From positions 7,026 through 71,025 of the forward strand of contig CAYUTI010000003.1 of assembly GCA_964447685.1 (NCBI GenBank): a DNA stretch of 64,000 bases, written 5' to 3'. Positions 42,003 through 43,821 of the stretch are shown one piece after another; position 1 is the first letter of the stretch; each line of letters opens with the position of its first letter. Made by a program: the position numbers and the translations under genes. The stretch comes from Candidatus Woesearchaeota archaeon. Its GTDB lineage: Archaea; Nanobdellota; Nanobdellia; SCGC-AAA011-G17; CAYUTI01. Under the pieces are notes generated by a model that saw only the letters and a list, made by a program, of their open reading frames with translations, was not told the origin of the DNA and searched no databases.

Positions 42003-42563
42003 TTATTGTTCTTCTGATAATTCTTCTTGTTGTCTTACTTTAATCCGTAAATTTGAATAGAAGTGTTTGGGTAATTGTTCTTTACCTTTTTCTGTTAATC
42101 TCAAAGCTGTTTTCCTTCCCTTCCTTTGCTTTTCTAAAAGCCCGAGATTAGTAAGAATTGTTGTATAATTGGATAGCAAAGATCTAATGGTTTCATATTT
42201 CTTCTCAGGGTAGAATTCCTTAGCAATAGCCTGCAAGGTTACCCAATCTTTATTACTTATTTCTAATAAGGCTGCAGTACCTTTTAATAAATCAAATTGT
42301 AAATCAGTTAATGCTTCTCCTACCTCATTTCCTTCTTCAATATCTTCGATAGATTCTTCTTTAGAGATAGGCTTCTGAATACTACTTAATTTAGATTCCA
42401 ATAAAAAGAATTTTTCTTCTAATGCCTTCAATCTATCATGATGATCTTCGTGTTTATTATGAAGATGTTTAATATCCTCTTTGATATTTGAGAAAGAATT
42501 TTTAAGTGACAGATGAATCTGATCTATACCACCTTCTTTTTTTCTCTTTTTAAAAAACAACAT
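42003..42563 (-). CDS. coiled-coil + C-terminal winged-helix DNA-binding protein (His-rich segment)
   Basis: N-terminal coiled coil with HLHNKHEDHHDRL; C-terminal wHTH (LLSNYTTILTNLGLLEKQRKGRKTALRLTEKG). Confidence 0.5.
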   Translation of the reverse strand: MLFFKKRKKEGGIDQIHLSLKNSFSNIKEDIKHLHNKHEDHHDRLKALEEKFFLLESKLSSIQKPISKEESIEDIEEGNEVGEALTDLQFDLLKGTAALLEISNKDWVTLQAIAKEFYPEKKYETIRSLLSNYTTILTNLGLLEKQRKGRKTALRLTEKGKEQLPKHFYSNLRIKVRQQEELSEEQ

Positions 42564-42605
42564 AAAGTTTGAATGATGTGATTATTTAAATAACTTTCGA
42601 ATATG

Positions 42606-42757
42606 TTAAGTGAATGTTTATGATGGTTTAGTGAACATTAATGTTACGTATGTGATGGTTCAGTGAATGTTATGTGATTGTTTAGTGATTGTTTAGTGAA
42701 GGTTATTTGACGGTTTTTAGAGTGTTTTTCAGTGTTTTTAGATTGTTTAGTGAAGGA
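42606..42757. repeat. array of ~6 GTT(T/C)AGTGA(A/T) repeats with roughly helical-turn spacing
   Basis: Copies at ~42606, 42626, 42657, 42679, 42690 and 42745. Spacings of 20, 31, 22, 11 and 55 bp are near multiples of 10.5-11. Confidence 0.6.
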
Positions 42758-42994
42758 GATAATGAAATATTGAGTGAGTATTAGAGTATTGTATAATTAT
42801 CATTAATACTTGGTATAAGAGAGTAATATTATTGAATGATTAAACTGGATTTCTTAGTAAATTTTAAGTAAAAAGTTATATTTGAGAGTTCGATAATTTG
42901 TTAAGGTATATATCTAAAGGAGAGTTATGTGAATAAGTGTTTAAATGAATGCATAAAAAGTCTAAAATAGGCTTATTTTTCAAAAAATGAGAGT

Positions 42995-43675
42995 TTAGAA
43001 GTCATGAGATAGCCTGGTTTGTTGAGGATCTGCTGATTTATAGTACAAATCTGAGAGTTTATCCTTGAGTTTTAGCTCCCTAAATTCATCAGAAACTGAG
43101 AGATAGACTATCTTATTATTATGTCGTTTTTTGAGGATGGGTACCCCTTTTTTCATTAAATTACTGATATAAGTTCTAATACACCCCTCTGAAAGCTCTA
43201 ATTTCTTAGCTATATCAATATAGGATACATTACCTATATCCTCTTCTAATTGGTAGATCGTTAAGAATACGAATAGTTCTTGTTTAGTGAGATTACCAAA
43301 AAGTTGGTTAATTTGGTTATTTATGCCCTTAAATGGCTCTTTAAGGGGTTCTGGAGCCTGTTTAGGTTGTTTGTTTAAGTGTATATCTGAATGCATATCT
43401 GAATGAATAAATGAATGAATATTTGCATAGACCCCTTGATTTCCTATGGAACTTGGTTTTGAAATAGGCTTTTCTAAGTTTTTTTCATCTAAAATAGCCC
43501 TTTTTTCCTCTATTTTAGCCAATAAAATATTAATAATGCTATTTTGCTTAATTATGAATTCCCTTTGTTCTTTTAATTCATTTTTAAGAAATAATATATC
43601 TCCTTTTATCTTAAGGAATGCTTTTTTGGCATTTTCTTCAAAAAGGGGGTCTTTTATAGGCATTTTTATGATCAA
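42995..43675 (-). CDS. coiled-coil + C-terminal winged-helix DNA-binding protein (His-rich segment), paralogous architecture to 42003-42563
   Basis: Coiled coil, HSFIHSDMHSDIHL, and wHTH LTKQELFVFLTIYQLEEDIGNVSYIDIAKKLELSEGCIRTYISNLMKKG. Confidence 0.5.
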   Translation of the reverse strand: MIIKMPIKDPLFEENAKKAFLKIKGDILFLKNELKEQREFIIKQNSIINILLAKIEEKRAILDEKNLEKPISKPSSIGNQGVYANIHSFIHSDMHSDIHLNKQPKQAPEPLKEPFKGINNQINQLFGNLTKQELFVFLTIYQLEEDIGNVSYIDIAKKLELSEGCIRTYISNLMKKGVPILKKRHNNKIVYLSVSDEFRELKLKDKLSDLYYKSADPQQTRLSHDF

Positions 43676-43683
43676 TAATAAGA

Positions 43684-43765
43684 ATGCTTAAATGTTTAAA
43701 TAATTTTATGTGTTTAAATGATATGTTTAAATGAATAATTAGTGTTTAGAATGTGTTTAAATGAA
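43684..43765. repeat. array of 5 TGTTTAAATGA-like repeats in the divergent promoter region
   Basis: tgtttaaat at 43692; tgtttaaatga at 43709, 43722 and 43753; tgtttagaatg at 43742. Confidence 0.6.
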
Positions 43766-43821
43766 TAAATATATCCTGTAGCACAATAACCTTTAAATAT
43801 GGAGAAGATATATCTAAGAAT

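Follow-up and report, generated by a model that had tools for sequence, protein, structure and literature searches.

The 64,000-nucleotide stretch analysed here, hereafter the window, comes from a Candidatus Woesearchaeota archaeon (assembly GCA_964447685.1, contig CAYUTI010000003.1, positions 7,026 to 71,025). Between its positions 42003 and 43772 lie two neighbouring genes, g1 and g2, which encode winged-helix proteins and are each preceded by an array of short repeats. Within its coding sequence, g2 also carries an origin recognition box (ORB), the type of site recognised by Orc1/Cdc6, followed by a short-repeat tract that is translated as part of the protein. The features of the locus are:

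42003-42563, minus strand: g1, 186 aa, with an N-terminal WxFKKK, a His-enriched long helix, a linker, a winged helix and a C-terminal helix
42581-42597, minus strand: likely B recognition element (BRE)/TATA box of g1 (AAGTTATTTAAATAAT), read from the sequence, about 20-30 nt upstream of the ATG
42603-42757, minus strand: array 1, about 14 degenerate tandem 11-bp units, defined by Tandem Repeats Finder (TRF), autocorrelation and orthologous arrays
42780-42995, minus strand: g2-g1 spacer with about 4-5 ACTCTC(A/C)-type words
42995-43663, minus strand: g2, 222 aa, with a long helix, about 48 aa of disordered linker, a winged helix and a conserved tail DPxQxRL
43151-43189, minus strand: codons of the g2 recognition helix EGCIRTYISNLMK (signature GC-T-Y; helix 163-175 in the AlphaFold model)
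43359-43430, minus strand: post-ORB repeat tract CTATGCAAATATTCATTCATTTATTCATTCAGATATGCATTCAGATATACACTTAAACAAACAACCTAAACAG inside g2, encoding YANIHSFIHSDMHSDIHLNKQPKQ, with the same words as array 2
43431-43452, minus strand: intragenic ORB GTTCCATAGGAAATCAAGGGGT (GTTCCAnnGGAAATnAAGGGGT), 0 mismatches to the consensus
43694-43709, minus strand: likely BRE/TATA of g2, sense strand CATAAAATTATTTAAAC, read from the sequence
43710-43772, minus strand: array 2, g2-type words TTCATTTAAACAC, TCTAAACAC and TTATTCATT, between the divergent promoters of g2 and of the neighbouring gene p139

An origin recognition box conserved inside the g2 gene

The marks of an archaeal ORB are the dyad TCCAnnGGA, then AAA(C/T) as spacer and GGGG(T) as G-string. 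The window box has this sequence make-up, being built of the dyad TTCCAnnGGAA, the spacer AAT and the G-string, and it encodes SSIGNQGV. The published archaeal consensus is CTTCCAGTGGAAACGAAAGGGGT, and one ORB of Methanomassiliicoccales is GTTCCAGTGGAAATGAAGGGGT (PMC4153887, Table 2); the latter is identical to the g2 element of L001, L031 and L037 (L-numbers are the labels of 80 fetched loci, against which the window proteins were compared by tblastn).

Among the 66 g2 genes for which the start was refined, 65 contain the ORB at no more than 4 mismatches over its 19 specified bases, 59 instances having no more than 2, at a median position of 211 nt past the ATG. The corresponding peptide, SS[T/S/I]GNxGV, is conserved in g2 and is encoded by the near-invariant DNA word AGTTCCA[nn]GGAAAT[n]AAGGGGT. 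Frame 1 is used in 63 instances of this word and frame 0, which gives VPQE..., in 7; in L007 and L009 the core dyad occurs twice, 16 bp apart, with both frames used (EVPQEISSTGNQGV). Its synonymous positions are fixed (TCC in 59/61, GGA in 58/61 and GGG in 61/61) on codons that are otherwise minor in g2 genes. The use of two reading frames, the double dyad that occupies both of them and the frozen synonymous sites together indicate that the constraint acts on the DNA. The ORB and the tract that follows it are encoded in the sole part of g2 that AlphaFold predicts to be disordered, where constraint on the protein is weakest.

Within the window, ORB-like words are confined to g2 and to the canonical oriC next to cdc6. 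In every genome compared, the g2 box is closer to the consensus than any cdc6-proximal ORB, the consensus being one derived from g2 boxes and nearly identical to published ORBs. No ORB is present inside g1 genes, where the best matches have 5-9 mismatches. In its location the g2 box departs from the canonical layout, in which ORBs lie as inverted pairs next to orc1/cdc6 and an AT-rich unwinding element: it is single and intragenic, no inverted partner was found near it, and it lies 5.5 kb from the AT-rich stretch in the window and 1.5-2 kb from it in Pacearchaeota. Its orientation is that of the right-hand oriC ORB. The g2 ORB is in the origin neighbourhood and is not part of the core origin.

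A lineage-specific repeat tract adjoins the ORB

In g2 genes a short-repeat tract begins within a few bases of the ORB G-string, and its unit is set by lineage. The units and their translations are (ATTC)n, read as HSFI; (AATC)n, as NQSI; (CAGA)n, as QTDR; (AAGC)n, as KQAS; (CAAA)n, as QTNK; and (GCGA)n, as ASER; (TCAC)n and (GCAC)n are also among the post-ORB tracts. At a fixed distance past the G-string a CA dinucleotide is conserved (C in 45/65, A in 56/65). Tract periods are 4, 8 or 12 across loci. Perfect runs reach 10-11 units in Pacearchaeota ((CAGA)11 in L076, 10 units in L053, L062 and L068), while the window tract is a degenerate one of the ATTC type with at most 2 perfect units and a lag-12 autocorrelation of 0.60. 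The His-rich patch of g2 is the translation of such (ATTC)n-type DNA repeats; it is a translated repeat tract, not a metal site.

The words of the tract recur upstream of the gene. In the window, the tract and array 2 have 10 7-mers in common, more than the window tract shares with any other locus, and across Woesearchaeota-like genomes, pairing each upstream array with the tract of its own genome yields 388 7-mers in common, against 141 +/- 19.5 when arrays and tracts are permuted (0/5000 permutations reached the observed value). A scan of the window with the shared words returned array 2 and the tract as the two strongest clusters; as the words were taken from both, this shows only that there is no third cluster of comparable strength.

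In Pacearchaeota (e.g. L045 at 6100-6250, L051, L057 and L068), TTCGACACATCC-type words, translated STHPSTH, occupy g2 codons upstream of the ORB. The g2 gene of Pacearchaeota thus has word arrays on both sides of the ORB, without a promoter array.

Recognition-helix signatures and repeat words

The recognition helix of g2 follows the pattern SE-x-x-[IV]-R-X-[YH], with four variable positions. We distinguished 13 helix signatures, each of which goes with a single word class, loci without a dominant tetranucleotide excepted. At least 176 relatives are present in GTDB. Associations include:

GC-T-Y with ATTC, 13 loci
GC-S-Y with ATTC, 2 loci
GC-A-Y with AAGC, 3-4 loci
GC-G-Y with AATC, 4 loci
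HC-[SG]-H with AATC, 6 loci
SS-D-Y with ACAG / CGACA, 21-22 loci
SG-H-Y with AAAC, 2 loci
SG-S-Y with (G/T)CAC, 2 loci
GR-S-H with GCGA, 1 locus

This association would fit a g2 protein that reads the repeat words, although it is suggestive only.

g1 and g2 encode distantly related winged-helix proteins

AlphaFold models of g1 and g2 are alike, with a long N-terminal helix, a disordered linker and a winged helix, and both proteins have the winged helix-turn-helix fold. In g1 the long helix spans residues 12-62 and is followed by an acidic disordered linker, the winged helix (80-163) and a C-terminal helix. For g2 the mechanical list of open reading frames begins at the TTG at 43675, which the sequence-only reading of this DNA had adopted as the start; the most likely start is the ATG at 43663, which matches the public record.

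The kinship of the two proteins becomes convincing only in profile-profile comparison, where the match of their family profiles covers both helix and winged helix and has a probability of 87% (E = 4e-6). The pairwise BLASTP match is marginal (E = 0.009) and a single sequence against the family profile reaches 37%. The g1 family was assembled by an exhaustive search of representatives, as a word-index homologue search returned g1 alone. Common to both families is a helix motif, K-x-SF-x-x-[IV]-K-x-D-I-x-x-L. Together, these results identify g1 and g2, from their sequences, as distant paralogues, each with its own array directly upstream of its promoter, in agreement with the duplicated pair that the sequence-only reading had proposed. 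The shared architecture that it described also holds for the long helix, linker and winged helix, but not for a common His-rich patch: the patch of g1 lies in the long helix and that of g2 in the linker, as translated repeats.

In g1 the His patch is a family trait, His making up 7.4% of the helix and 1.5% of the remaining protein, with at least 3 helix His in 18/39 family members; in the g2 family the long helix contains only 1.4% His. HxxxH-type spacing is seen in the His-enriched helix of many g1 family members, and proteins of the family begin with a near-invariant hydrophobic-basic motif, (M)xWWLFKKK (the N-terminus of g1, window 42540-42563). The N-terminal motif and the His-enriched helix hint at interaction with metal or membrane. 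At its other end, the g2 protein has a conserved extreme C-terminal tail (42995-43030), DPxQxRL(x)D(x)F, that resembles an archaeal PCNA-interacting (PIP) box; the match to this putative PIP box is imperfect, and several orthologues end at QxxLF.

Family models place neither protein. Matches in Pfam stay below the cut-offs (HTH_11 at 23 bits against 25 for g2, DUF6293_C at 18.8 against 27 for g1), those in NCBIfam lie far below threshold, and the folds are generic MarR/ArsR-like winged helices.

Arrays upstream of g1 and g2

Array 1 contains 5 copies of GTTYAGTGA (42626, 42658, 42680, 42691 and 42745) and a variant, GTTAAGTGA, at 42606; one further copy (43282) is present elsewhere in the window, where 1.1 are expected by chance, and 0/100 shuffles gave 6 copies. 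With the variant included, the spacings are 20, 32, 22, 11 and 54. TRF reports a period of 11 across 42603-42748, and autocorrelation peaks at lags 11 (0.56), 22 and 33. The helical phasing of array 1 therefore follows from its being a degenerate tandem 11-mer. The about six copies at near-integral helical turns described from the sequence alone thus stand as five copies and a variant on an 11-bp lattice, with spacings of 32 and 54 rather than 31 and 55.

On the g1 sense strand the unit of array 1 is TTCACTAAACA / TTCACTGAACC; this is an AT-rich variant of the palindromic words, of the GTTCnnnGAAC type, that precede g1 orthologues. In almost every orthologue the array lies directly 5' of the TATA box and is made of palindromic 10-11-bp words such as GTTCGTCGAAC, GTTCACTGAAC, CGTCACTGACG and GTCTATAGAC; TTTATATA-like boxes occupy the position of the g1 BRE/TATA. 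As sequences, the g1 arrays look as would classically be expected for a dimeric regulator that binds an operator array cooperatively.

Array 2 is of another make. Rather than the five copies of GTTTAAATGA first counted, it holds only 3 exact copies (43712, 43725 and 43755) and 3 degenerate ones (43686, 43694 and 43743), of which those at 43686 and 43694 either fall on the likely g2 BRE/TATA or closely follow it in the downstream direction. Two more exact copies lie nearby, at 42939 and 44184(-), so that all 5 exact copies of the window fall within 42.9-44.2 kb, where 0.7 are expected. Both arrays are therefore enriched and local, as against common AT-rich words. TRF and autocorrelation give array 2 a 30-bp period, with spacings of 13, 18 and 12 and no one-turn lattice. 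The g2 orthologues too have arrays immediately 5' of the TATA box, with words that vary by lineage; the best-scoring period of these arrays is most often 11 bp (18/42 loci), and the BRE/TATA-like box of g2, CATAAAATTATTTAAA, recurs in L012 and L014. The proposal that binding sites co-diverged with their regulators is borne out as far as position, conserved in many orthologous genomes, and lineage-specific words go, as expected of regulator-operator pairs, binding being predicted from sequence.

Outside array 2 and the tract, g2-type words form only minor patches in the window, as regards signs of a regulon. One (TATGCATTCATTTAAACACTTATTCACAT) is short and lies at 42930-42960, just downstream of g2. 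The other, at 45907-45934 in the divergent promoter of ArgRS and wh99, holds AAGTGAAT three times and reads in reverse complement as TTATTCATTCACTTATTCACTTATGCAC, a string of g2-type words also present upstream of g2 in L006; this patch is only a modest cluster in the scan for g2 words. On this sequence likeness, g2 may act on the ArgRS/wh99 promoter too.

The g2-g1 spacer holds several copies of a third conserved word, A(A/C)TCTCA(C/T)TTT, which overlaps the g2 stop codon or comes after it. The first spacer word, AACTCTCATTT (42985-42995), overlaps the g2 stop codon, and ACTCTCACTTT follows the stop codon also in L006, L017, L020, L024, L028, L042 and L046. Judged by its sequence, the word may mark termination or a 3' end, or serve as a further binding site. 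With one mismatch allowed, AACTCTCAYTT shows no enrichment across the window; its clustering is local and its position conserved. When folded, neither strand of the spacer proved to be a structured RNA (z = +1.45 and -0.20). In some genomes a AAGCTTATTTTAGCTT hairpin-like motif and a T-tract come after this word.

Throughout the arrays, the spacer and the post-ORB tract (42600-43800), G is nearly absent from the sense (minus) strand, array 2 containing none, and the word classes of all genomes are G-poor on the coding strand.

A chromosomal gene cluster around oriC

The genes and elements around g1 and g2 are:

38521-39342: Xer-type tyrosine recombinase, 3-4 kb from g1
39329-39850: Cys/His-rich HNH-like protein, 3-4 kb from g1
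43822-44241, plus strand: p139, a conserved 139-aa protein with no assigned function, from the cluster comparison
45907-45934: short patch of g2-type words in the promoter region from which ArgRS and wh99 diverge
45933-46232, plus strand: wh99, a small winged-helix protein, from domain search and cluster comparison
48797-49115: canonical oriC, ORB-like boxes flanking an AT-rich low-complexity stretch
49156-50373, plus strand: orc1/cdc6 (Cdc6_C 2e-27, Cdc6_lid 7e-21)
50370-51998, plus strand: PolD DP1, followed by DP2 at 51995-55546 (PolC_DP2 domains)

The three ORB-like boxes of oriC are at 48804-48823(-), 49050-49069(+) and 49089-49108(+), with the AT-rich low-complexity stretch (48940-49048) between them. 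An AT-rich stretch with flanking ORB-like boxes upstream of orc1/cdc6 is the classical layout of a chromosomal oriC, and the succession of oriC, orc1/cdc6 and a PolD DP1-DP2 operon is the arrangement found in Pyrococcus. These boxes bear extended GGTGTAGG(G/T)GT tails.

The cluster around cdc6/oriC is chromosomal and conserved in 80/80 fetched genomes, spanning two orders, Woesearchaeota and Pacearchaeota. One arrangement is kept, DP1<Cdc6<oriC>(p99b)(LonB)(ArgRS) p139> wh99> g2> g1 ... Xer. In it, p139 was found in 65/80 loci and wh99 in 53/80, in many of these 53 immediately upstream of g2; g1 follows g2 in 33/80; and in Pacearchaeota the g2 start is only 1.5-2 kb from cdc6. From the g2 locus to the canonical oriC (48.8-49.15 kb) the distance in the window is 5.5 kb. 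The p139 gene normally has the orientation of g2 and is inverted in the window, which is why array 2 sits there between two divergent promoters. Searches of Pfam, NCBIfam and PDB sequences gave no match for p139. Xer is present downstream of g2/g1 in 36/80 genomes; it is thus part of a conserved chromosomal neighbourhood and no marker of an integrated element.

The window encodes the archaeal proteins LonB, ArgRS, Orc1/Cdc6 and both PolD subunits, has a uniform base composition of about 30% G+C, and every relative of its genes is from a metagenome-assembled genome of Woesearchaeota, Pacearchaeota or other Nanoarchaeota. Relatives of g2 were found neither in IMG/VR (2.9 million viral contigs) nor in PLSDB (72,556 plasmids), and the g1/g2 region gave no matches in Rfam (gathering thresholds) or in a tRNA scan. 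A Fic/DOC-family protein at 37224-37967 (-; Pfam 9e-16) is apparently unrelated to g1 and g2.

Proposed explanation

The sequence elements, the conservation of the ORB at the DNA level, the synteny, the sharing of words and the conflict-free association of helix and word suggest a reading to which we give somewhat better than even odds (about 0.55): g1 and g2 would be autoregulated winged helix-turn-helix factors of the origin cluster, and g2 would act beside Orc1/Cdc6 at an auxiliary ORB in its own gene. From the same observations we infer protein-DNA binding, autoregulation, cooperation or competition between Orc1 and g2, and any effect on replication. In detail, g1 and g2 would be DPANN-specific, transcription-factor-like paralogues, each probably dimeric through its long N-terminal helix. 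Each most likely regulates transcription of its own gene by binding the array that immediately precedes its BRE/TATA, g1 reading an 11-bp lattice of GTTCnnnGAAC-derived words and g2 reading direct words with a CA core. The linker codons of g2 would form a composite element, a full-consensus ORB as the Orc1/Cdc6 site and then g2-type words on its G-string side. On adjacent sites, Orc1/Cdc6 and g2 might touch or exclude each other; Orc1 at the g2 ORB would also stand in the path of the RNA polymerase transcribing g2. Contact or exclusion on the one hand, or a roadblock on the other, would couple occupancy by the initiator to the level or occupancy of g2, and the element would then amount to an auxiliary site for the initiator, close to oriC and provided with an accessory factor of its own. 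Replication, which the sequence-only reading had brought in through an initiator/iteron pair or the locus of an integrated plasmid, would thus enter through a canonical ORB within g2 and an oriC 5.5 kb away.

A further step, which goes well beyond this and which we hold only tentatively and consider rather doubtful, would make g2 a lineage-specific accessory factor of the initiator and the g2 gene its own regulatory locus, with origin licensing coupled to g2 expression in Woesearchaeota and Pacearchaeota and with repeats and recognition helix co-evolving as a code (T/ATTC, A/AAGC, G/AATC, D/ACAG, H/AAAC), as the sequences might be read.

Several observations weigh against the reading of g1 and g2 as autoregulated factors with an auxiliary ORB. 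Pacearchaeota have the ORB and the tract, and show neither an upstream array nor a signal of sharing between array and tract; autoregulation through an upstream array is therefore not universal. Next to the ORBs of the canonical oriC, g2 words were not found, so that g2 is not a general partner of Orc1. Word changes fall on the same branch as a change of helix signature in 4/17 cases, by a crude test (Fitch reconstruction on a neighbour-joining tree of an 87-aa domain) that lacks the resolution to tell co-adaptation from co-inheritance, and co-inheritance is possible; several words also map to more than one helix signature. A 4-bp period is ill-suited to a winged helix that binds duplex DNA, and the palindromic dyad could equally be the operator of a dimeric g2 itself. 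Finally, GC skew gives no independent placement of the origin in the window, because it follows the coding strand.

The last but one of these points leads to an alternative that we consider unlikely, namely that g1 and g2 are plain autoregulated paralogous factors with no link to replication, the palindrome being g2's own operator or a protein-level motif and its likeness to an ORB incidental. Generic MarR/ArsR-like folds and arrays upstream of promoters, which are typical operators, would be expected of such factors; ATTTCCAnnGGAAAT is a near-perfect palindrome that suits a dimer, and the invariant R167 and Y169 of the recognition helix could read an invariant site. However, the asymmetric G-string AAGGGGT is also invariant, is unneeded by a symmetric dimer and equals published ORBs base for base, the same type of box is present at the cdc6-proximal origin of the same genomes, and the origin-proximal synteny is kept over two orders. 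As the box is read in two frames, a protein-level motif is excluded. Less likely still is that the g2 locus is a second or extended origin, at which the ORB and iteron-like words would recruit Orc1 with g2 as an accessory initiator. WhiP, a winged-helix protein encoded at oriC3 of Sulfolobus, offers a likeness to g2 here, direct repeats flank and fill the g2 gene, its promoter and N-terminal codons are AT-rich, and its box is nearer than any cdc6-proximal ORB to the consensus (derived from g2 boxes, as said above, and nearly identical to published ORBs). Yet there is a single ORB with no inverted partner, no distinct unwinding element and no skew signal, and some tracts are GC-rich, e.g. (GCGA)7 in L010. 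In Pacearchaeota, with genomes of about 0.7 Mb according to a 2026 Nanobdellota genome preprint, g2 is 1.5-2 kb from oriC, so that a second origin would add little.

The remaining alternatives take the repeats as their starting point. By analogy with parC/ParR, tubC/TubR and parS in spo0J, arrays of g2 sites could build a centromere-like or origin-organising nucleoprotein structure near oriC; we find this improbable, since the conserved cluster contains no gene for an NTPase of the ParA, ParM or TubZ type, the invariant ORB would be left unexplained, and the window has no more arrays elsewhere. Very improbable, in our view, is that g2 is a phase-variable contingency gene in which tetranucleotide slippage switches the frame and thereby the winged-helix part on or off. 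Tetranucleotide tracts of 10-11 units, as long as the longest perfect runs of the orthologues, are sufficient for slipped-strand mispairing in bacteria; the window, however, lacks a long perfect tract, its own being degenerate and never exceeding 2 perfect units, the reading frame is intact in nearly all assembled orthologues, and neither the ORB nor the recurrence of the words in a non-coding upstream array would be accounted for. Hardly any credence can be given to the replication or partition module of an integrated plasmid considered in the sequence-only reading. Repeat arrays beside winged-helix genes do resemble iterons with a Rep protein, and the Xer-type integrase (38521-39342) and the HNH-like protein lie 3-4 kb away. 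Against this, the gene order, Xer included, is conserved next to cdc6/PolD in dozens of genomes of different orders, the cluster around cdc6/oriC in 80/80; IMG/VR and PLSDB hold no relatives; base composition is uniform; and Pfam and NCBIfam gave no Rep or Par family match, nor does a partition NTPase gene lie nearby.

There are precedents for ORBs, for autoregulated winged-helix factors and for phased operator arrays. Three things appear to be undescribed in the searchable open-access literature: the conservation, in two orders, of a full-consensus ORB within coding sequence; the fusion of that ORB to lineage-specific repeats whose translation is the linker of the very protein apparently reading them; and tract words common to the upstream array of the gene itself. 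The same literature yielded no mention of ORBs in DPANN, nor are they mentioned in the large 2026 Nanobdellota genome preprint, which covers 208 complete genomes (bioRxiv 10.64898/2026.05.13.725050). Replication control in DPANN is essentially unstudied, origins being placed there only by the position of cdc6. If the proposed explanation is true, the locus would provide a concrete, testable candidate for additional, accessory control of the initiator in archaea and an unusually clear case of dual coding, in which SSTGNxGV and the HSFI/QTDR/NQSI repeats, a peptide that annotators would otherwise call a His-rich or low-complexity protein feature, exist only for a function at the DNA level. The natural helix variants and their matching words would then also make a ready specificity panel for recognition by winged helices.

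Comparison with known systems

No characterised relative of g1 or g2 was found. Compared with MarR, TrmB and ArsR regulators, both stay below the thresholds of the family models, and their long N-terminal helix and long disordered linker are atypical. Iteron/Rep origins resemble the g2 locus in having a winged-helix gene beside short direct repeats and promoter sites that suggest autoregulation. Rep proteins, however, have tandem WH1-WH2 domains and repeats of about 17-22 bp, whereas g2 has one winged helix with a long N-terminal helix and units of 4-11 bp; the g2 locus is chromosomal and contains an Orc1-type box, and neither a Rep family next to iterons nor a plasmid or integrated location was found for g1/g2.

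Partition systems offer a different likeness. In B. subtilis parS lies inside spo0J, and parC/ParR and tubC/TubR have arrays of 11-12-bp phased direct repeats at the promoter. Like the proposed g2, spo0J is an origin-proximal gene holding the binding site of its own product, and 11-bp phased arrays are present at the g1/g2 locus; in type II/III partition cassettes (ParR/parC, TubR/tubC) phased direct repeats lie around the promoter and are bound cooperatively by the adaptor. The locus differs in that no partner motor NTPase (ParM, TubZ or ParA) is encoded among the window or cluster neighbours, in a winged helix unlike ParB or the ribbon-helix-helix of ParR, and in the presence of the ORB.

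In bacteria, initiator boxes outside the unwinding region are combined with sites of accessory proteins, as in datA and DARS with IHF, or in the DnaA-box / GC-cluster / DnaA-trio arrangement. These initiator-titrating or -modulating loci have in common with the g2 element a box, a G-rich cluster and short tandem repeats; they involve other proteins in another domain of life, and the 4-mers of g2 are lineage-specific and seem to track the accessory protein, not the initiator. Within archaea, Orc1-2 of Sulfolobales is an Orc1/Cdc6 paralogue that acts as a transcription regulator at ORB-like motifs away from origins, in promoters of DNA-damage genes of Crenarchaeota (PMC6061795). Orc1-2 sites are in promoters, whereas the g2 ORB is a full one, inside an open reading frame and next to oriC. 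With the oriC ORBs themselves the g2 box has in common the dyad, the A-rich spacer and the G-string. It differs from them in being single, 1.5-5.5 kb from the unwinding region and inside translated coding sequence, and, where canonical ORBs come without a lineage-specific short-repeat tract, the g2 ORB is fused to one.

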